Positions 11,083 through 62,539 of a stretch of DNA of 64,000 bases are shown one piece after another. The stretch is taken from positions 50,439 to 114,438 of IMG/VR virus record IMGVR_UViG_3300011242_000001; one strand, 5' to 3'. Position 1 is the stretch's first letter, and each line of letters opens with the position of its first letter. Under the pieces are notes generated by a model. The model was given only the letters and a program-made list of their open reading frames with translations. It made no database searches and was not told the origin of the DNA. This DNA comes from a virus. Lineage: Duplodnaviria; Heunggongvirae; Uroviricota; Caudoviricetes. A program made the position numbers and the translations under genes.

Positions 11083-11104
11083 ATTAAGAATGACAGGAGC
11101 AAAC

Positions 11105-32914: not shown

Positions 32915-32946
32915 AAAAAAAAGGACCGCAAGGTCCTTTTTTTATG
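32915..32946. terminator. bidirectional rho-independent terminator (GGACC-gcaa-GGTCC)
   Basis: Hairpin flanked by an A8 run and a T9 run between convergent genes. Confidence 0.6.
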
Positions 32947-33415
32947 CTTTTTTAATAGATTTAACTATATTATATTCGGATTTAGTCGCTAATAATACAG
33001 TTTGCGGTGTTAAATGACCATTTGAATTTTTATAACTTAAAGATATTGTTCTACTATATCCGTATGTATCAGATGATTTTCCTTCTTGATGAGCAATCAA
33101 TGCGAAAGTATGAGCTCCTTTCTTATTTTCATTTGAGTCAACTAATTCATATCCTTTTTTAAGTAATTCAGCCGGCTTAGCCGATTTTAATACAGAAGAC
33201 TCTTCAATTGAATCTAAGAAATCACTATAATTATCCCATTTTGCATCAGATTTATTTTGTACTTTACTTTGTACTATATAATTAAAACCTTCTACTACGG
33301 CTTTAACTATTGTACCGTCATCTAATTCAATAGTTAATAGATCACCTTTATTGTAATTTGTAAATTTTACACTTTTATCATTCGATGATTCATTTAAAAA
33401 TTGTTCAAAATTCAT
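32942..33415 (-). CDS. putative capsid-targeted internal protein (CTS family), 157 aa
   Basis: N-terminus MNFEQFLNESS matches the window-wide MxFxxFLNE motif, which is analogous to the T4 CTS MKTYQEFIAE. Confidence 0.5.
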   Translation of the reverse strand: MNFEQFLNESSNDKSVKFTNYNKGDLLTIELDDGTIVKAVVEGFNYIVQSKVQNKSDAKWDNYSDFLDSIEESSVLKSAKPAELLKKGYELVDSNENKKGAHTFALIAHQEGKSSDTYGYSRTISLSYKNSNGHLTPQTVLLATKSEYNIVKSIKKA

Positions 33416-33486
33416 TTTTTATTGCTCAATAATATTTATATATATATATTTATATAATAAAATAACTTTTAATTAAGATTTAAAAA

Positions 33487-33510
33487 GGATGCAATATGCA
33501 TCCTTTTTTT
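33487..33510 (-). terminator. rho-independent terminator (GGATGCA-tat-TGCATCC)
   Basis: Hairpin with flanking A/T runs after the minus-strand gene 33512..33763. Confidence 0.5.
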
Positions 33511-33511
33511 A

Positions 33512-33763
33512 TTACTTATCGCTAAAGTGTTCAGCGATATATGATTTTAAATCTTCATTATCATCACATATATAAGTATCAAGATGTTTTTCACCTTTAA
33601 AGAGAATACATTCATATTCTCCTTTGTCAAATTCAGTAATATATAAAGAATGTGTGGAATTAGTAATTAAAGTTGCTTTACCAGTATGTACTTTTGCGGT
33701 GCTAGGTACTGCAGATTTAATAGCCGAAGTTGTAATTTCATTTAGGAAGTTAGTGAAGCTCAT
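33512..33763 (-). CDS. putative capsid-targeted internal protein (CTS family), 83 aa
   Basis: N-terminus MSFTNFLNEITT. Confidence 0.5.
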   Translation of the reverse strand: MSFTNFLNEITTSAIKSAVPSTAKVHTGKATLITNSTHSLYITEFDKGEYECILFKGEKHLDTYICDDNEDLKSYIAEHFSDK

Positions 33764-33856
33764 TTTTTATCTCTTTATTTACGTTATTATATTATTTTAT
33801 TTAATAGAGTTTTTTTTATTAAATAATAAAAAACCCCATACCAAAGGTATTAACAA

Positions 33857-34588
33857 ATGAATTTTGAACAATTTTTAAATGAAGCATCACCCGCGCGTGA
33901 ACGTACTGCTCGACTCACTTTTTCTAAAAAAGTAGCTGACGGGCTTGATAAAGCAGCGGGCGACCCAGAAAAAGAACGTCGCTTCGGTAAAGCTATTTTT
34001 AAAGAAATGTATAAAAAATATGGCGTCGGCTATGATCATTTATTAGATTCACTTGAAGGATCAACAGCTGAAAAATTAGAACAAGCAAATGCATGGGCTG
34101 CTTTAGAAGGTGTTCGCGATTTTTATGCTGAAAAAGGTGATACAAAAACAGCAGAATCTTATCAACGTACAATTGATAAAATGGATCGTGAAACTACTAC
34201 TAAAACCGGATCGGCTGCTTTAATTAAAAATATTATTGCGGCAATTAAACCAGGCGGTAAGTTTAACGAATTTGCCGAATATGATACTAACAAATTTGAT
34301 ATTGTTTTCCCAAAACATAGTCCAAAAACCACTGAAGTTAAAGAATCTGTTAGTAAAGCAACAGCGAACTTATATTTTCAGCATAAAACTACTACATATA
34401 AAAAAGTAAGTACAATATCATATATGGCGAATATTATTATTGCTTATAATGGACCTCGTGCTGGTGAAATTATGCATATCATTTATAATGATAACGGCGT
34501 CACAAAAATTAAAACATTCGGTACGGAAAATTTATTAGATGACGCTTTAAAAGGTACATTTAATAATAAAACGATTACAAAAGTTTAA
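33857..34588 (+). CDS. putative capsid-targeted internal protein (CTS family), 243 aa
   Basis: N-terminus MNFEQFLNEASP. Confidence 0.5.
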   Translation: MNFEQFLNEASPARERTARLTFSKKVADGLDKAAGDPEKERRFGKAIFKEMYKKYGVGYDHLLDSLEGSTAEKLEQANAWAALEGVRDFYAEKGDTKTAESYQRTIDKMDRETTTKTGSAALIKNIIAAIKPGGKFNEFAEYDTNKFDIVFPKHSPKTTEVKESVSKATANLYFQHKTTTYKKVSTISYMANIIIAYNGPRAGEIMHIIYNDNGVTKIKTFGTENLLDDALKGTFNNKTITKV

Positions 34589-34601
34589 AAAGTTTAAAAA
34601 A

Positions 34602-34622
34602 GGACCATTTGGTCCTTTTTAT
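34602..34622 (+). terminator. rho-independent terminator
   Basis: GGACC-attt-GGTCC plus TTTTT. Confidence 0.6.
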
Positions 34623-34718
34623 TTTACTGGTGAAAATCAGTTATTTTATAAAAATGTATATACAAATTTAATTTTATATATTATAATGATATCATATTCA
34701 ATCATAATGGTGATTAAA

Positions 34719-35027
34719 ATGAGATTAGTTCGTGAAGCTGCTGGTAAAGAATATAAAGGTAAACGTCATGCATTTCGTATCATTGGCGCTGCTGAAGATA
34801 AAGCTCGCATTGAGCATATTGAAGATCTACTTGGCCAATGTCTAACTGGTAATATGATGTTCTCTGAATACCACCAAAAAATGGTACCTGAAACTTATTA
34901 TCATCGTTACAGTGATTGGTGTGCCGGATGTGAATATTCTGGTGCTGGATGCGGTTGGTATGTTGATATCGAAGATATTGAAGAATTCAAAGCAAATTGG
35001 AATGATATTAAAAAGCGTATACAATGA
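34719..35027 (+). CDS. hypothetical Cys-containing protein
   Basis: ATG MRLVREAAGKEY; contains CAGCEYSGAGCGW. Confidence 0.4.
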   Translation: MRLVREAAGKEYKGKRHAFRIIGAAEDKARIEHIEDLLGQCLTGNMMFSEYHQKMVPETYYHRYSDWCAGCEYSGAGCGWYVDIEDIEEFKANWNDIKKRIQ

Positions 35028-35464
35028 AACTATTAGAAACTCATATGCATCATCAATATCCGGCACATTTTAAAGAATTGTGCCGTGAGCTTAATACTAA
35101 TACTATTAGTGATATTAATTCGCAATCAAATATATATTATGGTGATACCAATTTTTTACAAGAATTTGGTATCTATAAAAATCCTAAAGCATATGATACA
35201 ATAATTAGTCGTATCATTGGAAATATACCGCCTCATGTAGATAATTTAGAGGATTATTCAAAGAACGCATATCTTCTTGTATTAGATGTTAGTATAGGTA
35301 ATCAATATGTTGATTCTCAAAGTTTACCAATGTTATATCAAAATAAAGAATTTTTAGGCTTACGTAAAGGTGATCTAGTAGAATTTAATCAAAGAGCAAC
35401 ACATGCTTTATTTTGGGATCGGCGCATTGATATCGCCGTATTTTGGAAAAAAATTTATTATTAA
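35024..35464 (+). CDS. hypothetical protein (possible HxD...H double-stranded beta-helix oxygenase-like)
   Basis: PPHVDN then ATHALF about 40 aa later; speculative. Confidence 0.4.
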   Translation: MKLLETHMHHQYPAHFKELCRELNTNTISDINSQSNIYYGDTNFLQEFGIYKNPKAYDTIISRIIGNIPPHVDNLEDYSKNAYLLVLDVSIGNQYVDSQSLPMLYQNKEFLGLRKGDLVEFNQRATHALFWDRRIDIAVFWKKIYY

Positions 35465-35477
35465 GTGAGTATATGAT

Positions 35478-35921
35478 ATGGATCCAAAAAAAGTTGAAGA
35501 ATATTATGAAAAAATTCAAGAAGTAATTGAAAAATGTGGTTATGCAATCCAGGGCGTATTTGGCGACGGAAAACCTGTTTGCTATACAATTGGATTAACC
35601 CCATTACTTGGTGCTGAAATTCTTACCACTGCCCCAATATCATTAGATACATTATATCAAATGTTACGTACTAATATTGATGGCTTTATTAAAAATAATC
35701 AATCAATTCCTGATGATGTATTTTCAGGTGGCTATTTAAAAAATGGCGATGAATTGCGATGTAAATTGGTAGATGTATCTACAAATAAAGATGTACTAAA
35801 CTTTATAACTGTTCGTACTTGTAATGTAGATAAAGTTTATCAATTATATTTTGGCGATATTAATAATATTCTGCCAGGTGAAGACGGTTATGATAATAAC
35901 TTCGATCAAGAACTAAAATAA
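35478..35921 (+). CDS. hypothetical protein
   Basis: 147-aa ORF followed by a terminator. Confidence 0.45.
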   Translation: MDPKKVEEYYEKIQEVIEKCGYAIQGVFGDGKPVCYTIGLTPLLGAEILTTAPISLDTLYQMLRTNIDGFIKNNQSIPDDVFSGGYLKNGDELRCKLVDVSTNKDVLNFITVRTCNVDKVYQLYFGDINNILPGEDGYDNNFDQELK

Positions 35922-35925
35922 AAAG

Positions 35926-35948
35926 AGGCTAAAGCCTCTTTTTAAAAA
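35926..35948 (+). terminator. rho-independent terminator
   Basis: GAGGCTAAAGCCTC hairpin plus TTTTT. Confidence 0.6.
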
Positions 35949-35994
35949 CATTTTTTTCATCTGTATGAATATGATCTTCAATAATAGATATATT

Positions 35995-36411
35995 TTATGC
36001 GTCTTTTTCTTCGGTTGGTTTTAAATCTTCAATCAATTCACCAAGGTAACCATATAATTCATCTTTACCAAATTTCTTCTCTAATTCAGTAATGAACGCT
36101 TCAATATCTTTACCACCACCAGTAATAGGAGCGCCTTCATCGTCATTCACATCAACATCGCCATCTTGTGAAATACCAGCTTCTACTGTTACTGTACCCG
36201 TTTTGCCATCTTCAGTTGTAACTTCAAATTTAACTTTAGCTAAGTGGACTAATTCATCACCACCAAACTCATCATATGCTTCATCAGCATCGCCGTCAAA
36301 TCCACCAACTAAGCCATAACGAATAAATACATAGCTTTTAGCATATTTAAAAGCATTATCAAAAGCAGCGGTTGCACCTTTTGCTTCATTTAAAAAATCT
36401 GCAAATTTCAT
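35995..36411 (-). CDS. putative capsid-targeted internal protein (CTS family), Gly/Asp-rich, 138 aa
   Basis: N-terminus MKFADFLNEAKG. Confidence 0.5.
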   Translation of the reverse strand: MKFADFLNEAKGATAAFDNAFKYAKSYVFIRYGLVGGFDGDADEAYDEFGGDELVHLAKVKFEVTTEDGKTGTVTVEAGISQDGDVDVNDDEGAPITGGGKDIEAFITELEKKFGKDELYGYLGELIEDLKPTEEKDA

Positions 36412-36597
36412 TTTTATTAATCCTAATAATTTTAATAATATTATTTAATAAAAATAATGTACATTTATTTACAGCTATGTTATAAATACAACATGATAAA
36501 AGTCTTATGTAGTAATGCATACAGCCTGTCTTTATTATATCCGGACGCGAAAAATAGGATATAAGATGTGAATTGATAACATTCATGCAATCGAAAT

Positions 36598-42693: not shown

Positions 42694-43227
42694 ATGTCGA
42701 TTGAATATTTATTAAGCGAATCATATGAAGGTAAATATTTTAAAATAAAAAGCCCAGATGGCTATTTTAAAGACGGAATTGTTGTTTCAGTTGAAAAAGA
42801 TTTTAATAATAATTATGTATTTGATCCTATTTTGGCAGATGTATATATTAATTCCAATGACCCTACCTGGGAATTATTAGAAGAATTACCTGAAGAAACT
42901 CATATACATCATTGTGATACATGTCGACGCAATTCTATTTCATATATAGATGAATCAGTAGAAGAATATGATTGTGAAGACTGTAGAAATAAACACAAAC
43001 AATTAAGCTCATATTTAATTGCCGACGATATTTATATGTTTAGAACTAATAATGATCTTAAAATTATTCAATCATTATTAGATGGTATTTCATTACACTT
43101 TAATGATGAAGAAACATTATTTAAAACTGAATCTGGTTTAGTAGTTGCTCATACAGAAATGGGTGAATTTGATTCATATCCTACTAAATGGTATAGAATT
43201 ATCCCGAAAGAAATTATTAAATTTTAA
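42694..43227 (+). CDS. hypothetical protein with CxxC pairs (possible Zn binding); N-terminus MSIEYLLSE weakly CTS-like
   Basis: HHCDTCRRN...CEDCRNK. Confidence 0.45.
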   Translation: MSIEYLLSESYEGKYFKIKSPDGYFKDGIVVSVEKDFNNNYVFDPILADVYINSNDPTWELLEELPEETHIHHCDTCRRNSISYIDESVEEYDCEDCRNKHKQLSSYLIADDIYMFRTNNDLKIIQSLLDGISLHFNDEETLFKTESGLVVAHTEMGEFDSYPTKWYRIIPKEIIKF

Positions 43228-45401: not shown

Positions 45402-45800
45402 ATGAGTTTTGAACAATTTTTAACTGAAGCAGCTGAACCGCCATATGAAACAGTTAATACGGATCAATTAAATGTTTTACGTCAAGAGATTGATCGCAGC
45501 GCATTACGTGTAGAATTAAATAAAAAGTATATTGATAAATCTGATCTTAATATTAGTTTATTTAATAATGACTATTATATTGGTGGCATGCGATTAGATA
45601 ATGATGATAATGTTATTGTTAAAGTTGCAATTATAGTTGAAGTAACGGAAGAGGACGGTTATTTATATTATAAGATAGCAAATATTGTATATGATATCAA
45701 TCAAAATAAAATTATTAAGATAATTGAAAATGATAAGATTCGTGATGAAAATTGGAAAACAGTTCAAGGCGAAATTTTAAAAACCGCCATTAAATTATAA
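45402..45800 (+). CDS. putative capsid-targeted internal protein (CTS family), 132 aa
   Basis: N-terminus MSFEQFLTEAAE. Confidence 0.5.
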   Translation: MSFEQFLTEAAEPPYETVNTDQLNVLRQEIDRSALRVELNKKYIDKSDLNISLFNNDYYIGGMRLDNDDNVIVKVAIIVEVTEEDGYLYYKIANIVYDINQNKIIKIIENDKIRDENWKTVQGEILKTAIKL

Positions 45801-45865
45801 AATTACATACATTTTAAAAAATACGGCTTATTATATGAGTCGTATTTTACATTTAAGGCGTTATT

Positions 45866-46501
45866 ATGTCATATTCTTCAATATACATTATTGATCAAGA
45901 TACTCATTTATCAAATACAATTGAATATTCAAATAGCTGGCTATTCGCACCAGTTGTATGGGAAATTATTTTAAATTCATATATCCAGGATGAACTACGT
46001 ACATCATATGGTATTGCTAAAAGTTTATTTACTAGTGATGGTGATCACTTATTCAGGATGGCAAATAAAGCAGTTAATAATTCTTCTATTATGTCTGATC
46101 GTGTGGCATGGGAAGTATCTAATCAGCAAATAATATTAGTTAAAGATAAAGAGTTTATTGCCGATTCTTTATTAAAATTTGTAGATGATCATAAAAATGA
46201 TGTAATGCTTTATAATAAAGAAAATAATTTGCAATATGATCATATTGCAAATAGATTTAAAAAAATTGCGGAAGATATAAGAAATATTGATTCAGATAAA
46301 AAATATTTTATTTTTAAAAACACTTCTGTTGATGATAGTATTGAATATTTCTTTACCAAATACGATGAAGAACTTGATGATTGTGTTCCAACCACATTAG
46401 AAGAAGCATCTAAAGAGTATGAAATGGAATTAGTTATTTTTTCAGACGATTATTCTAAAATGAATTTTATTAGTTCAAATAATCCAGAATTTAAACTCTA
46501 A
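45866..46501 (+). CDS. hypothetical protein
   Basis: 211-aa ORF. Confidence 0.45.
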   Translation: MSYSSIYIIDQDTHLSNTIEYSNSWLFAPVVWEIILNSYIQDELRTSYGIAKSLFTSDGDHLFRMANKAVNNSSIMSDRVAWEVSNQQIILVKDKEFIADSLLKFVDDHKNDVMLYNKENNLQYDHIANRFKKIAEDIRNIDSDKKYFIFKNTSVDDSIEYFFTKYDEELDDCVPTTLEEASKEYEMELVIFSDDYSKMNFISSNNPEFKL

Positions 46502-46520
46502 ATAAATATAAAAACTTTTT

Positions 46521-46547
46521 GGGGATTAAATTAATCCCCATTTTTTG
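46521..46547 (+). terminator. rho-independent terminator
   Basis: GGGGATTAAATTAATCCCC hairpin plus TTTTTT. Confidence 0.6.
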
Positions 46548-46762
46548 TATAAATAAAAATAATATGGAAATAAATTAACTTATACTAATACTTATACCGG
46601 CGAACGTGATTCAGTACAAAGTTTTGAACGCGAATTTACAAATATAAATTTTAATAATACGCGTCTTGTTGGATTTAGTAATGATTTAAACTGTCCAATT
46701 AATGATAATTCTGTTATATATACTGCAAAAATCATTAAATAATTGTAAAAAAAGAGAATACT

Positions 46763-47410
46763 ATGAAATTTGCAGACTTTCTATTAGAAGCGCCATTACC
46801 AGATACTTGGGATAAAGACAAGTTTAAAGGCAGGCTTGACTTTAAAGGTATGGTTGAATACGCATTAGAACGCTCAAAATCTTTAGGTGAAGGCTCATCA
46901 CGTGTTGCATTTAATATTGAATATAAAGGTCGTGAAACAGCTTTAAAAATTGCAAAGAATCCAAAAGGCGTTGCTCAAAACGTACAAGAAATATTGTACT
47001 TAAATGATGAAAAAATTAAAAAACTTAATATCACAATCCCTTTAATTGATTATGATACAACCAACCATAAAGCACGTTGGTTACATACAGAAAAAGCTGA
47101 TAAAATTCATGACGCATATTTTGAAGAAGAATTAGGTTTACCTTTGCGGGACGCAATTCTTTATATTAACCGTGATATTAATCCACCAAAGTTGTCAATA
47201 GGTTCTAAATTACAAGCCGAACGAGGCGAAAAGCTTAAAAAAGATTCCCCTATCGTTAAAGCAATCTATAAATTATTAACAGATTTTCCAGAAATTGGTT
47301 ATGGTGATTTAGCTCGCATTCAAAATTGGGGTATGTATAAAGGGCACCCGGTTATTTTAGATATCGGATATGATTCAACCTCGGCAGTATTATATAAGTT
47401 GGCAAAATAA
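46763..47410 (+). CDS. CTS-bearing protein-kinase-like (RIO/KdoK/APH-type fold) protein
   Basis: N-terminus MKFADFLLEA; LGEGSSRVAF (Gly-rich loop), TALKIAK (beta-3 Lys), YGDLARIQNWGMYKGHPVILDIGYD (HGDLxxxN catalytic loop followed by IDFG-like metal-binding Asp); 215 aa. Confidence 0.55.
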   Translation: MKFADFLLEAPLPDTWDKDKFKGRLDFKGMVEYALERSKSLGEGSSRVAFNIEYKGRETALKIAKNPKGVAQNVQEILYLNDEKIKKLNITIPLIDYDTTNHKARWLHTEKADKIHDAYFEEELGLPLRDAILYINRDINPPKLSIGSKLQAERGEKLKKDSPIVKAIYKLLTDFPEIGYGDLARIQNWGMYKGHPVILDIGYDSTSAVLYKLAK

Positions 47411-47847
47411 TGAAATTTGTAGATTTTTTAAATGAAGTTAAGCTTTATAGAGGTGGGGTAATTCCACCTGGTAAAACACTTATTTGGTATACAGAAGATT
47501 CAGATTTTGCAACAACTTATAGTCATTTAAAAGGTGACTTTGTATTTCATGAATTAGATGCCGATTTATCAAAATACAATATATGTGATATTGGCAGAAT
47601 TGAAAATGTAACCAGTATGACATATTTATGCGGCATTTTATGGAAGTATGCTAATATTAAGGATAAAGAAATTTTTGATAAAGCTAAAAAATTGATGCAA
47701 GAAATACGAGGGTCTAGTAAAGATCATTTACATCAATTGATATTCAAAGAGCCTAGATTTATTGACTATATGAAATTATTAAAAATAGATGGTATTAAAG
47801 CAACGGAAAACAAATCTGTAACATATGGTTTTATTAATAAGCTATAA
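47410..47847 (+). CDS. putative capsid-targeted internal protein (CTS family), 145 aa
   Basis: N-terminus MKFVDFLNEVK; ATGA-coupled to the upstream gene. Confidence 0.5.
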   Translation: MKFVDFLNEVKLYRGGVIPPGKTLIWYTEDSDFATTYSHLKGDFVFHELDADLSKYNICDIGRIENVTSMTYLCGILWKYANIKDKEIFDKAKKLMQEIRGSSKDHLHQLIFKEPRFIDYMKLLKIDGIKATENKSVTYGFINKL

Positions 47848-47852
47848 AAAAA

Positions 47853-47870
47853 GGACCGTGAGGTCCTTTA
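47853..47870 (+). terminator. hairpin GGACC-gtga-GGTCC (weak T tract)
   Basis: Same hairpin family as the other terminators, but followed by only TTTA. Confidence 0.4.
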
Positions 47871-47890
47871 CCAAATTACAGTCTCAGATT

Positions 47891-48115
47891 TTATAGCAGG
47901 CCTAATCTGCATCTCTGCATCTCTGCAATACAACCAGGCTCTAAAGGATATTTATCAATATTCCACTCAAAATTCGCCATAAAGGTGGTACCTTGATAGA
48001 TCAAGAAATTTTTAATTAGCGGTTTAAGTATCATTTTTTTAATGTCCTTTTTACTCTTATTTAATAAAAAAGCTATATACTTATATAAAGTCACGTTATA
48101 TAATTGTATATACAA
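47891..48115 (-). CDS. small hypothetical protein (doubtful)
   Basis: 74-aa ORF in an intergenic segment that also contains a CTGCATCT x2.5 tandem repeat. Confidence 0.25.
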   Translation of the reverse strand: MYIQLYNVTLYKYIAFLLNKSKKDIKKMILKPLIKNFLIYQGTTFMANFEWNIDKYPLEPGCIAEMQRCRLGLL

Positions 48116-48133
48116 ATTTAATGGAATAGATGC

Positions 48134-48526
48134 ATGAAATATTTAGCAATTATATTTTTATTATCTAGCATGAATGTAACGGCTAAAGCTGACACGATTT
48201 ATATTGGTGATTATACACAATACCAAGCAAAGTATTTAAAAAACATTGATTTGCATCAATCACCTAAAGGCGTCTTAAATAGTTTAACATCGTTAGATTA
48301 TAAAAAAATTGATAATGTGGTATTATCAACTGGCGTATCTAATAGATGTGCTGATTATAAAGTCGCAGAGGCACAGATTAAATTTTTAGCATCAAAAAAC
48401 ATTAATTTTATAGTTATTAAAGATAAATCATGCTTTGGCGTAGAAAGCGTATTACGAAAAGCATGTGAAGCGTCTACTAAGTGTAAGTATAAAGAGTTTA
48501 ATGAATTAAGATTTAATGAATACTAA
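48134..48526 (+). CDS. secreted/periplasmic protein with N-terminal signal peptide
   Basis: MKYLAIIFLLSSMNVTAKA signal-like N-terminus; Cys-containing mature part. Confidence 0.45.
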   Translation: MKYLAIIFLLSSMNVTAKADTIYIGDYTQYQAKYLKNIDLHQSPKGVLNSLTSLDYKKIDNVVLSTGVSNRCADYKVAEAQIKFLASKNINFIVIKDKSCFGVESVLRKACEASTKCKYKEFNELRFNEY

Positions 48527-48568
48527 ATTGATCGACACACATAGATTTAAAAACATGGATTATATATT

Positions 48569-49189
48569 ATGGTAAAATATTACGCTGGGATTGGTAGTAG
48601 AGAAACGCCACCTGACATTTTTAAATTGATGACAGAAATAGCTTCAATTTTAGAAGTAAATAACTTTATTTTAAGAAGTGGCGCTGCGACAGGTGCGGAT
48701 ACCGCATTTGAATCTGGTATATCTGATTTTAAAAATATGAATTTATTTTTACCCAAGCCAGTATTTAATGATCATAATTGGTATGATAAAGGCTGTATTT
48801 ATATAAATGATACACACCCAAATTATCAAGCTGCATATGATAGTATCATTATTCATCCAGCTGGATTTAAATTATCACTAGGTCCCCGCAATATGATGAT
48901 CCGAAATTATTTCCAAGTAATGGGTATTAATGACGAACCAATATCTTCATTTGTTATATGCTGGACACCAGATGGAGCTGATGGTATTACTAAGCTAACA
49001 TCGCGTGAAACTGGTGGAACGGGTCAGGCCATAAGGATAGCAAGTAAGTATAATGTGCCGGTTTATAATTTAAATAGTGATTATGGTGAAATGGATGCAC
49101 AATCGATTGTTGATATGATTTTGAAAAACCTGAATGAGGGTATTAACCCTCATATCAGAATTCAACGAAAGACAACTTCACTTTTTTAA
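48569..49189 (+). CDS. DprA/Smf-like (SLOG superfamily) Rossmann-fold protein
   Basis: YAGIGSRETP...LRSGAATGADTAFESG matches the DprA/LOG-type GxGSR...SGxAxGxD nucleotide-binding pattern. Confidence 0.45.
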   Translation: MVKYYAGIGSRETPPDIFKLMTEIASILEVNNFILRSGAATGADTAFESGISDFKNMNLFLPKPVFNDHNWYDKGCIYINDTHPNYQAAYDSIIIHPAGFKLSLGPRNMMIRNYFQVMGINDEPISSFVICWTPDGADGITKLTSRETGGTGQAIRIASKYNVPVYNLNSDYGEMDAQSIVDMILKNLNEGINPHIRIQRKTTSLF

Positions 49190-49935
49190 AGTATTTCTAA
49201 AAACTCTTCCCAACGGTCGAGTAAAACAGCTACGCATGGTCCACCAATCCAAAATTCACATTTTCCGTGAATTTTGGATATCTCATTTGACTTAATAGCG
49301 GTAAAGTTTAATTGCTTTGGGTCATATGTATATGACAAATATTTTTCAACATTATTAACATCATGTTTAAATAGTTCTGCCACAAATTCTTCTTGACTAC
49401 TACTATTATCATTAATATTTTCAATAATATGTTTAATATCGCGTACTATTGATTCATAACTACTTGAATCAATATTGCATTCTAAAAATAGGGTGTTATA
49501 TTGTTCTAAATCACCAAAGTCATCACCAATAGATGTTTCAGTCATCCAGATATCAGGCTTATTAACGCATCCAATAATAGTATCGTCATAAGGTAATATT
49601 ACATACATATTATCGCCAAATATTTTTGCTTGACGTTTATTGCTAATATTAGTACAAATAATAGAAGCCGATCTTAATGGTAAATTTGATTTAGTTTTTT
49701 TAATAAAATGATCGATCATTACAGTGTAATAATTACCATTACTATCTTTATTGCGGGATTCACGATTGCCTTTTTGTCCTTCAAATATATAGTATTGTCC
49801 AGTATTATTAGCTCCACGAATAATATAATTATCTTTATCAATATGGGAGCAATGTTTTTTTACAAGCTCAATAGCTTCGGCTTGTGTTATTGTTGTTCTG
49901 TATGAAGATTCATTTAAAAAAGTTAAAAAATCCAT
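49186..49935 (-). CDS. putative capsid-targeted internal protein (CTS family), 249 aa
   Basis: N-terminus MDFLTFLNESSY. Confidence 0.5.
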   Translation of the reverse strand: MDFLTFLNESSYRTTITQAEAIELVKKHCSHIDKDNYIIRGANNTGQYYIFEGQKGNRESRNKDSNGNYYTVMIDHFIKKTKSNLPLRSASIICTNISNKRQAKIFGDNMYVILPYDDTIIGCVNKPDIWMTETSIGDDFGDLEQYNTLFLECNIDSSSYESIVRDIKHIIENINDNSSSQEEFVAELFKHDVNNVEKYLSYTYDPKQLNFTAIKSNEISKIHGKCEFWIGGPCVAVLLDRWEEFLEIL

Positions 49936-52701: not shown

Positions 52702-54060
52702 ATGAATAGTAATAAAGTATTTGAATCATTACAGGAAATCGCACAAACATCTGCGACTAGTCAAAAACAGCAGCTTGTTGCATCATTTATTGAGAATGAG
52801 CAATTTCGATTGGCTGTTGAATATGCTTTTAATCCTCATAAAGTTTATGGTATTATTCCAGAACATAGCTGGATTACTACTAATGGTACTGCTGTATTTG
52901 ACGAAACTACTTATACTTTATTGAATTCATTAATTGAACGCAAATTAACTGGTAATGCTGCTCGTGAGGCTATTCGCCAAGAATTAAGTCGCTTGCAAGC
53001 TGAATCAGCAAATCTTTTAGTTGATATTATTAAAAAAGACTTGCGAGCAGGTTTTTCTGAAAGTACAGTGAATAAGGTATATAAGGATTTAATTCCTGAA
53101 TATAGCTATATGCGTTGTAGCACTTTAACAAAAATTAAGCCGGCAAAATTTAATTGGAAAAAAGGTGTTTTTTCTGAGCTTAAATTAGATGGTATGTATG
53201 CTAACGGTAATATCCTTGATGATCTACAATTTGTATCACGACAAGGTTCGGTTATGCCAATGGAGCATTTCCAAAATATTGCCAATAGTGTTAAACATAT
53301 TAATGGCTATCAAACGCATGGTGAGCTTCTTGTAAAACAAGATGGTAAAATTTTACCCCGTACTACTTCGAACGGTATTTTAACATCTGTTATGAAAGGT
53401 GGTAAATTTGAAGATAATCAAGTACCAGCTTATGTAGTATGGGATATTATTCCAATTGAATTTGCAAAGAAAAAAGGTAAATACAAAGTACCTTATCATA
53501 AGCGTTTAGAATTACTTGAAGAATTATTTGCAGAAAATTCATATATTGACGTTGTAGAATATAAAGTTGTATATTCTCTACAAGAAGCAGTTCAACATGC
53601 GATGGAGCTTATTACTTTAGGTCATGAAGGCTCTGTATTTAAAGACCCAGATATGCCTTGGGAAGATGGTACAAGTAAATGGCAAGTAAAAGTAAAAATT
53701 GAATTTGAAAGCGATTTAGAAATTGTTGAAATCATTCCAGGTCGAGTCGGAACAAAAGTAGAAGGTCGTCCTGCAGCATTATTATGCAGATCATCAGATA
53801 ATGCATTATCAGTATCAGTTGCTGTTAAAAATGATAAAATGCGTGACACTATTGAAAAAGATCCAAGCGATTGGATTGGTCGTATTGTACCAGTGGTAGC
53901 AAATGATTTAATGCTACCAGGCGATAATAATAAATTACATAGCTTATTTTTGCCTCGCTTATCACAAGCTGTATATCGTGTTGATAAGTCTACAGCGGAT
54001 GATATTGGGCGTATTAAAGATAGCTTAGAAGCGGCTAAACAAGGCGTCGTATTAGAGTAA
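52702..54060 (+). CDS. 30: ATP-dependent DNA ligase (T4 gp30-like)
   Basis: ERKLTGNAAREAI matches T4 ligase TRKLTGNAAIEEL; SELKLDGMYANGNI contains the KxDG adenylation motif; AAGG RBS; 452 aa. Confidence 0.8.
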   Translation: MNSNKVFESLQEIAQTSATSQKQQLVASFIENEQFRLAVEYAFNPHKVYGIIPEHSWITTNGTAVFDETTYTLLNSLIERKLTGNAAREAIRQELSRLQAESANLLVDIIKKDLRAGFSESTVNKVYKDLIPEYSYMRCSTLTKIKPAKFNWKKGVFSELKLDGMYANGNILDDLQFVSRQGSVMPMEHFQNIANSVKHINGYQTHGELLVKQDGKILPRTTSNGILTSVMKGGKFEDNQVPAYVVWDIIPIEFAKKKGKYKVPYHKRLELLEELFAENSYIDVVEYKVVYSLQEAVQHAMELITLGHEGSVFKDPDMPWEDGTSKWQVKVKIEFESDLEIVEIIPGRVGTKVEGRPAALLCRSSDNALSVSVAVKNDKMRDTIEKDPSDWIGRIVPVVANDLMLPGDNNKLHSLFLPRLSQAVYRVDKSTADDIGRIKDSLEAAKQGVVLE

Positions 54061-54958: not shown

Positions 54959-55025
54959 TATAAATAAATGTTTATTTTTTATAAAATATAGTAAAATTAG
55001 ATATTAGTTGAATAGGAAAAAGATT

Positions 55026-55745
55026 ATGCCGGCAGGACAATATAGTAAAGAGATTACACATAATACAGGTCGTGTATTTGTAATCGGTGATTTACATGGT
55101 GAAATCGATAAACTTTATGCGGCTATGGAATCTGTTAATTTTAATTATGATGAAGATATTATTATTGCGGTTGGTGACCTGGTAGATAGAGGCCCTAAAT
55201 CACTTGAATGCTTTAATTTAATTTATAAATCATGGTTTAAAACTGTTCGTGGAAATCATGAACAATTTTGTTTAGATCGTGTATATGGTAGCACACCCGC
55301 AAATATTCATGAAGGTAATGGCGGAGAATGGTTTAGTTATTTACCTGAAGATGTGCAAGTTAAAATTGCTGATGAAGTAGAACAATTGCCGATCGTATTG
55401 ACATTAAATAGAAATAATAAAAGATATGGCTTTGTGCATGGTGATATTCCAATTATTATTAAAGATTGGAATGAATTAGTATCGTTTTTAAGTGGTCCAT
55501 CAAAAGATACATATGCGACTCAATGCTTATGGGGCCGAACTCGTATTAAGCAAACCATGAACACCCCATTATCATTAAAGGCTAGTATTGATAATATTGC
55601 ATCAGTGAGAAATGTCGACCAAATTTATATTGGTCATACTGTTATTAAAGATATAAAAACATTAGGTAATATGACATTCATTGATACAGGCGCATGTTTT
55701 GATAATTTTGGTTACGGTAAATTAACAATTATAGAGCTAGAATAA
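55026..55745 (+). CDS. Ser/Thr protein phosphatase (PP-lambda / calcineurin-like metallophosphoesterase)
   Basis: VIGDLHGE (GDxHG), VGDLVDRGP (GDxxDRG), RGNHE (GNHE), later HGD and GHT motifs; AGGA RBS; the track start at 55008 is a TTG. Confidence 0.7.
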   Translation: MPAGQYSKEITHNTGRVFVIGDLHGEIDKLYAAMESVNFNYDEDIIIAVGDLVDRGPKSLECFNLIYKSWFKTVRGNHEQFCLDRVYGSTPANIHEGNGGEWFSYLPEDVQVKIADEVEQLPIVLTLNRNNKRYGFVHGDIPIIIKDWNELVSFLSGPSKDTYATQCLWGRTRIKQTMNTPLSLKASIDNIASVRNVDQIYIGHTVIKDIKTLGNMTFIDTGACFDNFGYGKLTIIELE

Positions 55746-56057: not shown

Positions 56058-56248
56058 TGCATCTAGGTTATCTTGTAGTACATAGAAGTGGTACAGATTC
56101 AGAAATTTATAGAATTAGTAAATTTAATGATGATGATACTTGCGAAATAATTTCGTATGTTAATGGTCGTGTAAAAACATTATCTATATCCCAATTACGT
56201 GAAGCTGATGATATTGAAGTCATGATTGGTAGCAGGATGAAAAAATGA
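56057..56248 (+). CDS. small hypothetical protein
   Basis: 63-aa ORF with overlapping start/stop couplings. Confidence 0.3.
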   Translation: MHLGYLVVHRSGTDSEIYRISKFNDDDTCEIISYVNGRVKTLSISQLREADDIEVMIGSRMKK

Positions 56249-56580
56249 AATTTAGTGATTATATTGCTGAAGCAAAAGAACAATATACGTTATACGTAGA
56301 TAAAAAACAAACAGTTGTACTTGATGATGCACCACCGTGGATTGATCATCGTAATGATGATTATGAAAAATATGTTGAAGTATATATTAAAGTAAAAGGT
56401 AATGATAAAGATAAAATTGCTTTATTAGTTGGTGTTAATATTGACGACGGTGAATATACGGTTATTGATACAAATATTCATGTTGATAAAGACAATAAAG
56501 ATCTTTTAAAATTCGTTAAATTAAGCACAGAACAAATTGAAGATTTATCTAAAGAAGAAGCTGAAACCGCAACCTCTTAA
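56245..56580 (+). CDS. putative capsid-targeted internal protein (CTS family), acidic, 111 aa
   Basis: N-terminus MKFSDYIAEAKE (IAE exactly as in the T4 CTS). Confidence 0.45.
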   Translation: MKFSDYIAEAKEQYTLYVDKKQTVVLDDAPPWIDHRNDDYEKYVEVYIKVKGNDKDKIALLVGVNIDDGEYTVIDTNIHVDKDNKDLLKFVKLSTEQIEDLSKEEAETATS

Positions 56581-56677
56581 AATCTTTCTATTTATTTTAT
56601 ATAAATACGTGTTATAGTTAAGTGTCTCTTACGGGACACTTAAATTTTTGTAAATTAAAATATATAATGGTAAATAA

Positions 56678-58498
56678 ATGAGTGAATTTAAAATTCTGAG
56701 TGAGCGTGATCATATCAGAACTAGAAGTGCGATGTATATCGGCTCAATTACATCGGAAGAAATTTCTGGTATTTTAAATTTTAAATATCAGACTAAAAAA
56801 TATATTCCTGGCCTAGTTAAAATTATTGAAGAAATTTATCAAAACTCGGTTGATGAAGCTATTCGTACTAATTTTGAATTTGGCAATGAAATTACAGTTA
56901 CTATTAAAGATGACTTTATTAACGGTTGGTTCGTTGAAGTCAATGATAATGGTCGGGGTATTCCAACTAAACAAATAGATGGCAAATATCAAGCTGAATT
57001 ATCTTGGACTCGAGCTCGTGCAGGTTCTAATTTTAGTGATGATAATCGTACTACAATCGGTATGAACGGTATCGGCAGCTATTTAACAACATGTTTTTCA
57101 AAACAATTTGTTGGCCAATCATGCGATGGAAAAATTAACGTAATTGTTAAATGTCTAAATGGTTGTGAAACAATTGAAACTACAGTTGAAAAGTCTAAAT
57201 CACGCGGTACAAACGTAAAATTTTATCCGGACTTAAAACTCTTTAATACAAAAACTATTGATAAAGAATTAATTGATCTTATTGAAGATCGACTAATGAA
57301 CTTAGCAATTTGTTATCCTAAAGTAACTTTTAAATTTAATGATAAAAAATTATCTATTAAAAATTCTACTCAATTAGCTAAGTCTTTCCATGAAAGTGCA
57401 TTGGCATTTGATGACGAAAATTTTAATATGGTTGTTGCTCCAGCTGGAGATGATGAAGAATTCCGTCATTTATCCTTCTTTAATGGTATTGCTATTAAAA
57501 ACGGTGGTAATCATATTGATTATTTTATCGGTGGTTTATGTAATGAATTAATTCCACTTATTAAACGTAAATGGAAAATTGAAGTATTACCTAACCAAAT
57601 TAAACAACATTTATTATTGGCATTTTGGGTACGTAATTTCCCTAATCCTAAATTTGATTCGCAGTCTAAAGAGCGTATCACAAATACGATTGGTGAAATT
57701 AAAACATTCATGGATTTAGACTTCAATAAAATTGCTAAGAAAATTTTAGCAACTGACGAAATCATTATGCCGGCAATTGATTCAATTCTTCGTAAAAAAG
57801 AAGCTATTGAAAAGCGTGCAGCCACTAATGCATTGAAGAAAGTTCAAAAGAAAAAGATTGCAAATCATATCGCTGCAAATGATAAAGATCCGGAAAAGAA
57901 AACTCTTTATATCGCAGAAGGTTTATCTGCTTCAGGCATGGGCCTTTCTGTACGTGATCCAAAATATCATGGGTTCTATTCTTTACGGGGTAAAGTATTA
58001 AACACACATGATATGTCGGCTTATGACATTCTTAAAAATAAAGAATTAGCTGAATTGCTTGCTATTATTGGATTGGATTTAAGTGATCCAGAAATATTGG
58101 AATCTGAATTGAACTACGGTAAAATTGCAGGCTTACAAGATATGGACCCGGATGGTAATGCGATCTTCTGTTTATTATTAATGTTCTTCTCTCGTTGGCC
58201 ACAACTATTTAAAGATAAACGTATTTTACGTGTTCAAACTCCTTTATTTGTAGCAAAGAAAAAAGGCAAACCAGCAAAGTATTATTATACGTTTGAAGAA
58301 TATGAAAATACGTCCGATAACTTAACTGGATATGAAATTACATATATTAAAGGTCTTGGATCTTTAGAAAAAGAAGACTATAAAGAAACTGTAATTGTTA
58401 ATCCACGCTTTATTGCAGTTACACTAGATGACATTGAAAAATTAAATATGACATTTGGTAATTCCGCTGATGCTCGTAAAGAGTGGATGATGGGATAA
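56678..58498 (+). CDS. 39: DNA topoisomerase II large subunit (GyrB-like; T4 gp39 and gp60 equivalents fused)
   Basis: ILSERDHIRTRSAMYIGS, NSVDEA, NDNGRGIP (GHKL ATPase); Toprim region (YIAEGLSASG, DMDPDGN) in the same ORF; 606 aa. Confidence 0.85.
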   Translation: MSEFKILSERDHIRTRSAMYIGSITSEEISGILNFKYQTKKYIPGLVKIIEEIYQNSVDEAIRTNFEFGNEITVTIKDDFINGWFVEVNDNGRGIPTKQIDGKYQAELSWTRARAGSNFSDDNRTTIGMNGIGSYLTTCFSKQFVGQSCDGKINVIVKCLNGCETIETTVEKSKSRGTNVKFYPDLKLFNTKTIDKELIDLIEDRLMNLAICYPKVTFKFNDKKLSIKNSTQLAKSFHESALAFDDENFNMVVAPAGDDEEFRHLSFFNGIAIKNGGNHIDYFIGGLCNELIPLIKRKWKIEVLPNQIKQHLLLAFWVRNFPNPKFDSQSKERITNTIGEIKTFMDLDFNKIAKKILATDEIIMPAIDSILRKKEAIEKRAATNALKKVQKKKIANHIAANDKDPEKKTLYIAEGLSASGMGLSVRDPKYHGFYSLRGKVLNTHDMSAYDILKNKELAELLAIIGLDLSDPEILESELNYGKIAGLQDMDPDGNAIFCLLLMFFSRWPQLFKDKRILRVQTPLFVAKKKGKPAKYYYTFEEYENTSDNLTGYEITYIKGLGSLEKEDYKETVIVNPRFIAVTLDDIEKLNMTFGNSADARKEWMMG

Positions 58499-58503
58499 AA
58501 AAA

Positions 58504-58525
58504 GGACCGTGAGGTCCTTTTTTAT
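58504..58525. terminator. bidirectional rho-independent terminator (GGACC-gtga-GGTCC)
   Basis: Hairpin with A-run/T-run between convergent genes. Confidence 0.6.
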
Positions 58526-58538
58526 TTTACAAGTTTTA

Positions 58539-58775
58539 TTACTTACTCATTTCTTTTTCGTATTTTTCAATATCTTCCATGGAAAGCCATTCAGGTTTTT
58601 TATCCAATGCGTTCCATAATTCTTTCATTTTTTCAATTTGTTCTTTAACACTGCCAGCCCATAAACTTGACTCAGAACGACCACCAGCTTTTAAAAAATA
58701 TTCACAGTCGCTTCGTAAACGACTCAATAACATATAATCGCCTTTGCTTTCATTTAAAAAGTCTTGAAAATTCAT
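58539..58775 (-). CDS. putative capsid-targeted internal protein (CTS family), 78 aa
   Basis: N-terminus MNFQDFLNESKG. Confidence 0.45.
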   Translation of the reverse strand: MNFQDFLNESKGDYMLLSRLRSDCEYFLKAGGRSESSLWAGSVKEQIEKMKELWNALDKKPEWLSMEDIEKYEKEMSK

Positions 58776-58883: not shown

Positions 58884-60203
58884 ATGAACCCCGTAGTAAA
58901 CAAAACAGTAACTGAAATTATCGATAATGAATATAAAGCGTATGCAATGTATGTTTTAGAGAATCGGGCAATTCCAAGTTATATTGATGGATTTAAACCA
59001 TCTCACCGAAAAATTTTATATTCGATGCTTAATTATTATAAAGGCAAAAAGGTTAAAGTTGCTGAATTAGGCACTAGTATCAGTCAGTTTAATTATCACC
59101 ATGGTGAAACATCCGCAATGGGTGCAGCAATCACACTTACAGCAAATTGGAATAATAACATGCCAATTTTCCGTGGGCATGGTAATTTTGGTACTCGACT
59201 AATTCAAGAAGCTGCTGCACCTCGTTATATTTTTGCTGATCTAAATCCAGATTTTTATAAATATTTTAACGATTTTGAGGTATGTAATAAACATCTTGAT
59301 TTAGAAAATCCTGAACCACAACAATATTTGCCAACTATTCCATGGATTTTAGTAAACGGTATTGAAGGTATTGCTGTCGGATTTGCTTGTAAATTTTTAT
59401 CTCATTCAACTAAAGATATTGCTAAAGCATGCGCATTAGCAGTAAAAAATAAATTAAAAGATTCTTATGTTTTACCTGTTACCTTACCTGGTTTTAAAGG
59501 TGAAATTATTCAAGAAGATCATAATAAAATTATTACGCGTGGTGTTGTAAACCGTACTAAACGTAATACATGGACTATTACGGAAGTACCATGGGGATAT
59601 GATCGTGAAAAATTCTTTAATCAATTAGATAAGATGCTTGAACAGAATAAGATCGTTGATTTTGAAGATATGTGTGATGAAAGCGGATTTAAATTTGTTG
59701 TTAAAATGGATACTGCAACAGATGCTAAATGCGAAAAAGATCCAATTGAATTCTTTAAATTAGAAAAAGCATTTACTGAAAATTATACGGCATTGGATGA
59801 AAAAGGCCAAATTATTCTGTTTAATAATAAATTAGAAATTATTCGGCGATTTGTAGATTTTCGTATTATGAAAGTTGGCGAACGTATTGCCTATGATTTA
59901 CGAAAATTAGCTGGCGATATTCTATGGCTTAAAACCAAGCATGCTTTTGTTAAAGATGTGGTTGGCAAGAAAATCAATTTAATGAACTTTTCTCGAGCGG
60001 AATTACTTGAGAAATGTATTGAAAAATATAAAGTTGAAAAAGACATCGCTACTAAGTTACTTTCTATTCCAGTATATGATATGACAACAGATATGATTGC
60101 AGAACTTGAAAATAAGATTGCAAAACTAGAAAATGAACAGAAAGAGCTAAGTGAATCAAACGCTACGGATGTTTACTTATCAATGCTTAAATCTATCTCT
60201 TAA
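58884..60203 (+). CDS. 52: DNA topoisomerase II medium subunit (GyrA-like, T4 gp52)
   Basis: AYAMYVLENRAIPSYIDGFKPSHRKILYSM (catalytic-Tyr region); AAAGGA RBS; 439 aa. Confidence 0.85.
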   Translation: MNPVVNKTVTEIIDNEYKAYAMYVLENRAIPSYIDGFKPSHRKILYSMLNYYKGKKVKVAELGTSISQFNYHHGETSAMGAAITLTANWNNNMPIFRGHGNFGTRLIQEAAAPRYIFADLNPDFYKYFNDFEVCNKHLDLENPEPQQYLPTIPWILVNGIEGIAVGFACKFLSHSTKDIAKACALAVKNKLKDSYVLPVTLPGFKGEIIQEDHNKIITRGVVNRTKRNTWTITEVPWGYDREKFFNQLDKMLEQNKIVDFEDMCDESGFKFVVKMDTATDAKCEKDPIEFFKLEKAFTENYTALDEKGQIILFNNKLEIIRRFVDFRIMKVGERIAYDLRKLAGDILWLKTKHAFVKDVVGKKINLMNFSRAELLEKCIEKYKVEKDIATKLLSIPVYDMTTDMIAELENKIAKLENEQKELSESNATDVYLSMLKSIS

Positions 60204-62273: not shown

Positions 62274-62539
62274 TGAATTCTCTTATTGAAAAATATAGAA
62301 AAGATTGTTATAAACTTATTAATACTGAAAAAAATATTAATCCACAACAACTTATCGGTGATGAAACTAATCCAATTCATTTATTATGGATGCTTGATCA
62401 AATTGAATATAATAGTGACCAATCTGAAACTAAAAAACATAGATGGCTCGGTTATATTCAGGGTGTATTAGTATGTAAAGGCTCTTTTACGGTTGTAGAA
62501 GAACGCAATTACACCAGAAATATTTTGGATGGTAAATAA
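62273..62539 (+). CDS. hypothetical protein
   Basis: 88-aa ORF coupled on both sides. Confidence 0.4.
   Translation: MNSLIEKYRKDCYKLINTEKNINPQQLIGDETNPIHLLWMLDQIEYNSDQSETKKHRWLGYIQGVLVCKGSFTVVEERNYTRNILDGK

Follow-up and report, generated by a model that had tools for sequence, protein, structure and literature searches.

The kinase-like gene and its setting

The window (the whole stretch of phage DNA that was analysed, 64,000 nucleotides) has a G+C content of about 29-30% and carries T4-type replication genes, namely gp43, gp39, gp52, Dda and DNA ligase. A megablast search of the 4.5-kb neighbourhood of the kinase-like gene against 50,697 phage records returned zero nucleotide-level matches. 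The T4-type replication genes and the lack of a match among deposited genomes together indicate that the source is a large phage of the T4 superfamily that has not been brought into culture. Head genes gp20-24 do not occur within the 64-kb window, and neither does a protease gene; a gp21-type protease is assumed for this phage because its replication genes are T4-like. The features of the locus and the principal neighbouring genes are as follows.

11090-12352 and 22835-24769: gp43 DNA polymerase, split
46734..46742, plus strand: putative late promoter ATTAAATAA, which contains TAAATA, 21 nt 5' of the kinase ATG
46763..47410, plus strand: kinase ORF, a leader followed by a minimal protein-kinase-like module
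47410..47847, plus strand: downstream ORF of 145 aa with leader MKFVDFLNE; start and kinase stop share 1 nt (TAATG)
52702-54060: DNA ligase
55008-55745: Ser/Thr phosphatase
56678-58498 and 58884-60203: topoisomerase II subunits gp39 and gp52
62539-63804: Dda helicase

Translation of the window shows that the kinase ORF is complete, starts with ATG and has 215 codons, giving a protein of 215 amino acids. The motifs quoted in a first-pass annotation of this DNA (MKFADFLLE, GEGSSRVAF, ALKIAK, YGDLARIQNWG and VILDIGYD) are all present at the expected coordinates of this ORF. The 145-aa ORF that begins at its last nucleotide is presumably co-transcribed with it, and the pair is kept in 5 independent contigs. 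Scans of the 145-aa protein against Pfam, PHROG and NCBIfam gave no family match. A candidate identification of this protein (KLYRGG...WYTEDSDF) as an ART was dropped, since these scans and a BLASTP comparison with P0133, a relative of the kinase fused to ART-PolyVal, were empty.

The Ser/Thr phosphatase that the first-pass annotation had pointed out in the same region is a real gene (Metallophos, E = 4e-18; NinI-like phrog_246, E = 3e-65), but the suggested link to the kinase is unsupported. The two genes are 7.6 kb apart, the phosphatase carries no leader, and there is no evidence of adjacency or co-occurrence, so it was rejected as a partner.

Predicted fold and active site

Neither the window protein nor any of 41 aligned relatives has a Pfam match, even with the cut-off relaxed to E ≤ 10. 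PDB sequence searches with the protein and with a profile of the 41 sequences gave nothing meaningful, and NCBIfam gave no match above threshold. In a few homologues the N-lobe matches Pkinase, PrkT or PglW weakly and below threshold, the best Pkinase match in any of them (P0145) scoring 17.9 bits against a cut-off of 31.7. Because the sequence searches are empty, the kinase assignment rests on the fold and on motif conservation.

The AF2 model has a mean pLDDT of 87.9, with residues 1-9 disordered (pLDDT below 50). Foldseek searches of the PDB with this model returned exclusively eukaryotic-like protein kinases (E about 2e-4), and searches of viral models returned uncharacterised phage proteins first, followed by Ser/Thr kinases of giant viruses. 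Fold comparison values were 9.2 for APH(2'')-IVa, 8.8 for a plant receptor-like kinase, 8.5 for JAK, 8.4 for Rio2, 8.3 for PknB, 8.0 for the tRNA 2'-kinase ArkI (216 aa) and 7.8 for Rio1. The elements follow one another in the canonical order: b1, the G-loop and b2 (39-54), b3 with K62 (57-64), helix C with E76 (67-81), b4 and b5 (94-110), four helices (117-174), the catalytic loop G-D182-x5-N188, b7 and b8 (189-198, as strands 189-192 and 195-198) and D200-I-G202. All parts of the protein-kinase-like (PKL) core are found, that is, a five-stranded N-lobe sheet, helix C, the catalytic loop, b7-b8 and the Mg-binding loop. The prediction is consistent with the kinase-like core proposed in the first-pass annotation, and the window protein almost certainly has a PKL fold.

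Conservation was measured over 266 near-full-length homologous modules, and equivalence of residues to PKA was assigned from the order of secondary-structure elements together with conservation. The protein is divided as follows.

46763..46789, plus strand: leader MKFADFLLE, residues 1-9, a candidate propeptide that resembles the T4 capsid-targeting sequence (CTS) and ends in L-x-E; E9 94% conserved
46790..46813, plus strand: N-terminal extension APLPDTWD; P11 90%, L12 86%, P13 97%, W16 94%
46886..46912, plus strand: Gly-rich loop GEGSSRVAF, b1-b2; G42 99%, G44 100%, S45 95%, S46 93%, R47 100%
46946..46948, plus strand: K62, the b3 'VAIK' lysine, in strand 57-64; 100% conserved
46976..46990, plus strand: Q72-N73-x-x-E76 in helix C (67-81); Q72 100%, N73 98%, E76 100%
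47300..47332, plus strand: catalytic loop YGDLARIQNWG; D182 95% (plus 3% E), N188 92%, W189 98%, G190 98%
47360..47368, plus strand: D200-I-G202, with the DFG-equivalent metal-binding Asp; D200 99%, G202 99%

The Gly-rich loop goes with model strands 39-43 and 47-54, K62 lies in the string ALKIAK (46940-46957), and D200 lies in VILDIGYD (47351-47374), for which the family motif is D-[IVLMA]-G. E76 is presumed to be the glutamate that pairs with the lysine, and D182 would be the equivalent of the catalytic base. Each member of the catalytic set (Gly-rich loop, Lys, Glu, Asp plus Asn, and the Asp of DFG) is retained at 92-100%. The lysine and aspartates on which the first-pass annotation had based its assignment are therefore conserved in homologues (K62 in 100%, D182 in 95% and D200 in 99% of the 266 modules). 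The APLPDTWD-type extension marks the start of the kinase module in N-terminal and internal copies alike. R47, Q72, N73, D96 and W106 are, with this PLPxxW extension, the invariant residues specific to the family, and the region between the hinge and the catalytic loop (residues ~117-174) is its most variable part.

Judged from this conservation, the window protein is likely to be catalytically active. A non-catalytic or ATPase-only kinase fold, of the RIO-like or pseudokinase type, that bound or inhibited a host factor in a nucleotide-dependent way, or that had a structural role among the internal proteins, is very improbable. Pseudokinases typically lose at least one catalytic residue. Here the G-loop, Lys, Glu, Asp, Asn and Mg-binding Asp are kept at 92-100% over several thousand diverged clusters, and the retention of the full set across such clusters argues for selection for catalysis.

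The protein departs from ordinary kinases in several respects. The spacing from the catalytic-loop Asp to Asn is D+6 against the canonical D+5, and several residues occur at position 180 (L 30%, A 12%, Y 12%, also V; Y in the window protein), so that there is no conserved catalytic-loop His. Only 13 residues follow D200-x-G before the protein ends, and the model places a single low-confidence helix there (205-214). A profile match to Pkinase (PF00069), the HRD His, an activation segment with APE, and helices aF-aI after DFG are all absent. With the activation segment and helices F-I, most of what forms the C-lobe and the peptide-binding surface in ePKs is missing. The window protein is a member of a distinct minimal PKL family that is unannotated and lacks the C-lobe.

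The HGDLxxxN...IDFG pattern that had been read from the sequence thus stands for the Asp, the Asn and the DxG, which are conserved, but not for the His or for the spacing of Asp and Asn. Attribution to a RIO/Kdo/aminoglycoside-kinase-like group proved too specific, because the HxD His is absent, the spacing is D+6, the C-lobe is missing (only one helix follows DFG) and the family has invariant residues of its own. Identity to RIO1/2, APH(2'') and ArkI is about 15% over 113-134 structurally aligned residues, and the window protein ends sooner after DFG than any of them. The N-terminal helix and flexible loop of RIO kinases are absent from it, as are the C-terminal helical subdomain and the HGD brace of APH.

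A protein substrate is about an even prospect. The protein could instead be packaged and injected and yet act on a small molecule or a nucleic acid, the candidates being a defence nucleotide second messenger, a sugar, an antibiotic-like toxin or, as for ArkI, a tRNA 2'-OH. We regard this as unlikely. The PDB matches to the fold are exclusively protein kinases, the helical substrate-binding subdomain of APH is missing, and the hypervariability of residues ~117-174 is more in keeping with macromolecular targets that diversify than with a single fixed metabolite. Iyer et al. also placed comparable truncated kinases of polyvalent proteins closer to protein kinases (PMC5512222).

The N-terminal leader

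A leader of the form M-x-F-x-x-[FY]-[LI]-x-E opens 10 ORFs in the window, including the kinase and the 145-aa ORF behind it. The other eight are listed here.

32942..33415, minus strand: IpIV homologue, MNFEQFLNE; phrog_3155 'internal virion protein', E = 8e-25
33512..33763, minus strand: MSFTNFLNE, 83 aa
33857..34588, plus strand: MNFEQFLNE, 243 aa
35995..36411, minus strand: MKFADFLNE, 138 aa
45402..45800, plus strand: MSFEQFLTE, 132 aa
49186..49935, minus strand: MDFLTFLNE, 249 aa, phrog_12810
56245..56580, plus strand: MKFSDYIAE, 111 aa
58539..58775, minus strand: MNFQDFLNE with LPD11 (PF18824, E = 2.4e-32)

Among the 19,439 ORF residues of the window there are 13 matches to F..[FY][LI].E, of which 10 begin exactly at residue 3 of an ORF, a position that chance does not explain. 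Family searches indicate that the bodies of the 10 leader proteins are mutually unrelated. A CTS-pattern leader common to unrelated genes of one phage, as in the internal proteins of T4, is therefore present in the window. LPD11 is a domain of 'polyvalent' proteins that are predicted to be injected (PMC5512222). The isoelectric points of the leader proteins are mixed, from 4.2 to 9.3, and are uninformative.

In T4, proteins bearing the CTS are cleaved by gp21 after Glu, and the processing of Alt at ITE-6 and LTE-619 is of the same kind (PMC5694885, PMC3012670). Read directly from the T4 genome, IPII and IPIII start with MKTYQEFIAE followed by A. The window leader shares with this sequence an aromatic-x-acidic-F-[I/L]-x-E followed by A or S, and is one residue shorter. 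The L-x-E9 that precedes A10 is, by analogy, the presumed cleavage site of the prohead protease.

The protein encoded at 32942-33415 provides a direct comparison. By tblastn it has full-length homologues in 470 Tequatrovirus-type records, at 34-41% identity and E values down to 5e-23, and those T-even-type records annotate them as 'internal virion protein / ipIV'. The IpIV of Shigella phage Shfl2 starts with MKTYQEFITEAA (MKTYQEFITE), and the window copy starts with MNFEQFLNESS. This difference indicates that the window leader takes the place of the experimentally defined T4 CTS on an internal protein. The CTS-like character ascribed earlier to the N-terminus of the kinase accordingly holds up: it fits the T4 pattern, it recurs on 10 unrelated ORFs, it replaces MKTYQEFITE on the IpIV homologue, and it goes together with a late-promoter-like motif. 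The leader is conserved as a peptide with differing codons, as in TTTCTATTAGAA and TTTTTAAATGAA.

The T4 late promoter, TATAAATA, has TAAATA at its core. Taking the T4 consensus to hold for the window phage, TAAATA lies 18-40 nt upstream of the ATG in 8 of the 10 leader genes and in 8 of 84 other ORFs (Fisher p = 4e-6). The ORF at 47410 is one of the two leader genes that lack it. The 9-mer ATTAAATAA is not enriched across the window as a whole, and the significance lies only in the positional association of TAAATA with leader genes.

To compare leaders among phages we used 80 IMG/VR loci that encode relatives of the kinase. These loci contain at least 39 different kinase leaders, for example MKVKDILKE, MKIKELFEA, MKLDNLYRT and MRAFEFLKE. 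In the 39 loci with distinct leaders, 43 neighbouring ORFs within 10 kb share the kinase's own leader, against an expectation of about 9.1 obtained with leaders taken from other, dissimilar loci. For roughly half of the related loci, no neighbour within 10 kb has the same leader. MKID(N/S)LY..LLE opens three adjacent genes of Alishewanella phage Slickus01, one of them the kinase. Because neighbours share the leader of each kinase, the leader behaves as a tag particular to each phage that changes in step in nearby accessory genes, as would be expected of a signal read by the assembly machinery of each phage. Such phage-specific leaders could be used to pick out, simply from sequence, candidate injected effectors of uncultured T4-like and jumbo phages.

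Since the N-terminal tag of the kinase is the same as that of the internal head proteins of this phage, the kinase is probably packed into the capsid and injected; packaging in the virion is, on the strength of the leader, a fairly probable outcome. The alternative is an active kinase that stays in the producing cell and acts there, the leader being part of a translation-initiation or regulatory cassette, a recombination handle for swaps of accessory genes, or a targeting or degradation tag. This is improbable. In its favour, the window holds no head genes, the leader genes are scattered among replication genes and not beside structural genes, and conserved leader DNA could promote cassette exchange. 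Against it, the leader agrees with the experimentally defined T4 CTS both in its pattern, down to the final (I/L)-x-E|A, and in its place in the protein, and is carried by a full-length IpIV homologue whose T-even copies carry the T4 CTS itself. The late-promoter-like motif is specifically associated with leader genes, leader conservation lies at the level of the peptide and not of the codons, and leaders co-vary among neighbours in other phages.

Relatives in other phages and a possible delivery route

A word-indexed search identified 106 homologues with identities down to 27%, all of them metagenomic. When a profile was run exhaustively against 1.84 billion cluster representatives, 3,147 clusters (50% identity) matched at E ≤ 1e-3 and 2,038 at E ≤ 1e-10. 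The ORF is therefore a real gene. The identical protein is present on many contigs, the largest of 381 kb. Among cultured phages, close homologues occur only in the Xanthomonas jumbo phages Xoo-sp13 (QDJ96353.1) and XacN1 (ORF170, BBA65318.1) and in two Alishewanella phages, one of which is Slickus01 (WGH49852.1); all are annotated as hypothetical. A tblastn search of the 50,697 phage records with the family consensus gave these 4 close records and one weak partial match (RM378); RaK2, which has a distant structural relative, was not among them. The sole PHROG match of the kinase, 4301, is without function annotation, and one JGI homologue record is already labelled 'predicted Ser/Thr protein kinase'. 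The family therefore comprises thousands of clusters from environmental large phages, almost none of them cultured, and no database gives its function. The text of the XacN1 virion proteome paper, which describes a gel-band analysis of limited extent, does not mention ORF170.

In multidomain relatives a leader (MRATEFITE and similar) is followed by an ART-PolyVal, GNAT or ParB-like region, and the kinase module comes last. P0133 combines ART-PolyVal (E = 4.6e-25) with the kinase, and P0117, P0136 and P0138 combine GNAT with it; P0197 has a weak match to NTP_transf_2. Some relatives contain two to four kinase modules. Because the same module is fused to ART-PolyVal or GNAT behind the same kind of leader, the family links the internal-protein/CTS system of T-even phages with the effector repertoire of polyvalent proteins, which had previously been treated separately.

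The junction in front of the module is also conserved. Of 253 modules, 184 of 192 N-terminal and 58 of 61 internal ones have [LIV] at -4 and E at -2 before PLPxxW, and in some proteins the motif is repeated in tandem, for example MRAFEFLKE-EVIDE-M|PLP. We read [LIV]-x-E as a processing site because gp21 cuts after such a Glu and because E9 is 94% conserved yet disordered in the model. Being kept across very different phages, the motif could instead belong to the structure of the domain and not mark a cleavage site.

We lean slightly towards the view that the window protein is a minimal protein-kinase-like phosphotransferase used by a T4-like large phage as an internal head protein. The gene would be transcribed late. 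Like the T4 CTS, the leader would bring the precursor to the prohead's scaffold core and dock it there. Cleavage after L-x-E9 by a prohead protease of the gp21 type would follow, and the mature enzyme (A10-K215) would stay in the head with the DNA and be ejected into the next host cell. This 206-residue mature module would rank among the smallest kinase cores known. Once injected, and before phage gene expression sets in, the enzyme would phosphorylate macromolecules of the host with the cell's own ATP, its most likely targets being host proteins that serve transcription, translation or defence. Other phages would deliver the same module inside polyvalent precursors (leader, ART-PolyVal or GNAT, then kinase), from which it may be released at the preceding [LIV]-x-E. 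The scheme would join the kinase chemistry of T7 gp0.7 to the route by which T4 Alt and IPI are delivered.

More tentatively, and with rather less than even confidence, we suggest that the more than 3,000 clusters of C-lobe-less kinases are an enzymatic class of injected internal proteins, made singly or excised from precursors, and that internal-protein cassettes and polyvalent proteins form one effector repertoire. T4-superfamily and jumbo phages would then load kinases by means of phage-specific CTSs, with the prohead protease cutting at [LIV]-x-E, and host defence or expression machinery would be phosphorylated seconds after DNA entry, independently of phage transcription.

A close parallel is the set of T-even internal proteins, among them IPI, IPII, IPIII and IpIV (CTS MKTYQEFIAE), in which a leader of about 10 residues likewise stands on unrelated small accessory genes of a T4-like genome. 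Ip1-3 are injected anti-restriction proteins (PMC12373910). The characterised internal proteins are small, non-enzymatic inhibitors of GmrSD-type restriction (PMC12373910), whereas the window protein has the fold of an enzyme. Its leader, M-x-F-x-x-F-L-N-E in the consensus of the window, differs in sequence from the T4 CTS, is one residue shorter, and is a putative packaging signal. T4 Alt represents the same concept, being an injected, host-modifying enzyme that is packaged, is processed by gp21 at (I/L)-x-E, and acts ahead of phage gene expression (PMC5694885, PMC5512222). Alt differs in its reaction (ADP-ribosylation, as against phosphorylation), in its fold and in its size (~75 kDa, as against 24 kDa), and it lacks the IP-type decapeptide.

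T7 gp0.7 and JSS1_004 are phage kinases that act on host or defence proteins at the start of infection and provide the functional model (PMC13645617, PMC12345140). Kinases of this kind disarm many defence systems (PMC13645617, PMC12345140). Homology of the window protein to gp0.7 was rejected (hhalign probability 0.5%), and the T7 kinase is expressed early from injected DNA and not packaged, has DPV instead of DFG, and carries a C-terminal shut-off domain. The gp0.7-family kinases, whose wide action against defences is a recent finding, need transcription and translation first. A pre-made kinase arriving with the DNA would act before a restriction, CRISPR or abortive-infection response. A limited literature search found no paper on a kinase among T4-type internal proteins or on a virion-packaged phage kinase. 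What appears to be new here is an unannotated family of minimal kinases that would be deployed through the internal-protein route of T4.

The closest concept is the kinase clade of polyvalent proteins described by Iyer et al. (2017, PMC5512222), who predicted truncated kinases in injected polyvalent proteins. These belong to the Ser/Thr/Tyr-kinase superfamily and, as in the window family, have lost the whole C-terminal subdomain while keeping the catalytic residues. They also keep company with ART-PolyVal, GNAT and NTase domains, the same partners to which homologues of the window protein are fused. Judged from the secondary structure of our model, and not from the alignment of Iyer et al., the window family lacks the clade's Glu before strand 2, its Gln in the last N-lobe strand and its insert between the conserved His and Asp. 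The family shows no conservation at position 43 (consensus GxGSSR), its last N-lobe strand reads W-[IL]-H-T-E without Gln, and no conserved His precedes D182. The hosts also differ: the window family is found in T4-like and jumbo phages, and the polyvalent clade in prophages of Verrucomicrobia, Chlamydia and Bacteroidetes.

Leader-bearing genes and their upstream motif

Ten ORFs in the window begin with the leader, an N-terminal M-x-F-x-x-[FY]-[LI]-x-E sequence resembling the capsid-targeting sequence of T4, and they are grouped in three clusters (32942-36411, 45402-49935 and 56245-58775). Interspersed with replication genes, these clusters look like a large internal-protein repertoire. Among the leader carriers are:

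32942-33415, (-) strand, full-length homologue of IpIV, an internal virion protein of T-even phages (34-41% identity; DUF7412, phrog_3155)
58539-58775, (-) strand, 78-aa stand-alone LPD11 domain with a CTS-like leader (PF18824, E 2e-32)

The leader of the IpIV homologue reads MNFEQFLNE where the T-even-type copy of Shigella phage Shfl2 has MKTYQEFITE. LPD11 is known elsewhere as a domain within giant polyvalent proteins, whereas here it makes up a single protein carrying the leader.

The motif TAAATA occurs 18-40 nt 5' of the start codon in 8 of the 10 leader genes, compared with 8 of 84 other ORFs (p = 4e-6), and before leader genes it often takes the form ATTAAATAA or ACTAAATAA. Examples of these sites upstream of leader genes are:

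46734-46742, TAAATA site
33797-33805, (-) strand, TAAATA site
33818-33826, TAAATA site
36441-36449, (-) strand, TAAATA site

The motif is a candidate late promoter of the leader genes. The ORF at 42694-43227, which starts with MSIEYLLSE and also has TAAATA upstream, is possibly an eleventh member of the set.

The kinase and its neighbours

Two other genes were considered with the kinase ORF (46763-47410):

47410-47847, (+) strand, leader-bearing ORF of 145 aa whose start codon shares one base with the kinase stop codon (TAATG)
55008-55745, (+) strand, Ser/Thr phosphatase resembling NinI (phrog_246, E 3e-65; Metallophos, E 4e-18)

The kinase and the 145-aa ORF are kept as a pair in five contigs. 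Scans of Pfam, PHROG and NCBIfam gave no family match for the 145-aa product, and an ART-like identity was supported neither by these scans nor by BLASTP against P0133, an ART-PolyVal fusion. In the ORF list the phosphatase gene begins with TTG, and its product is without the leader. A 130-aa ORF (48134-48526, +) has a signal-peptide-like N-terminus (MKYLAIIFLLSSMNVTA) and is followed by a gene for a DprA-like protein (48569-49189, +; phrog_768, E 5e-45).

Relatives in other phages

In some metagenomic homologues of the kinase (P0107, P0108 and P0110) the kinase module is repeated in tandem, with two to four copies per protein, and [LIV]-x-E, the presumed prohead-protease cleavage site, stands before every copy. 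In Alishewanella phage Slickus01, three adjacent genes (locus L002, 4456-6609) share the leader MKIDxLYxxLLE. A search of a phage genome collection gave a weak match in Rhodothermus phage RM378 (NC_004735.1, 111483-111596; 40 residues aligned at 52% identity, E 6e-4) that covers the G-loop/b3 region of the kinase, and this similarity suggests that the thermophilic T4-like phage encodes a distant member of the family.

Other genes of the window

The T4-type DNA polymerase gp43 is divided between two genes that are separated by about 10.5 kb and whose order is inverted: the product of 11090-12352 (+) corresponds to positions 496-853 of phrog_262, in its C-terminal part, and that of the downstream gene, 22835-24769 (+), to positions 9-504, in the N-terminal part. 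An auxiliary gene at 2803-4104 (-) encodes a protein of 433 aa with a match to phrog_5890, annotated "tellurite resistance" (E 7e-86).
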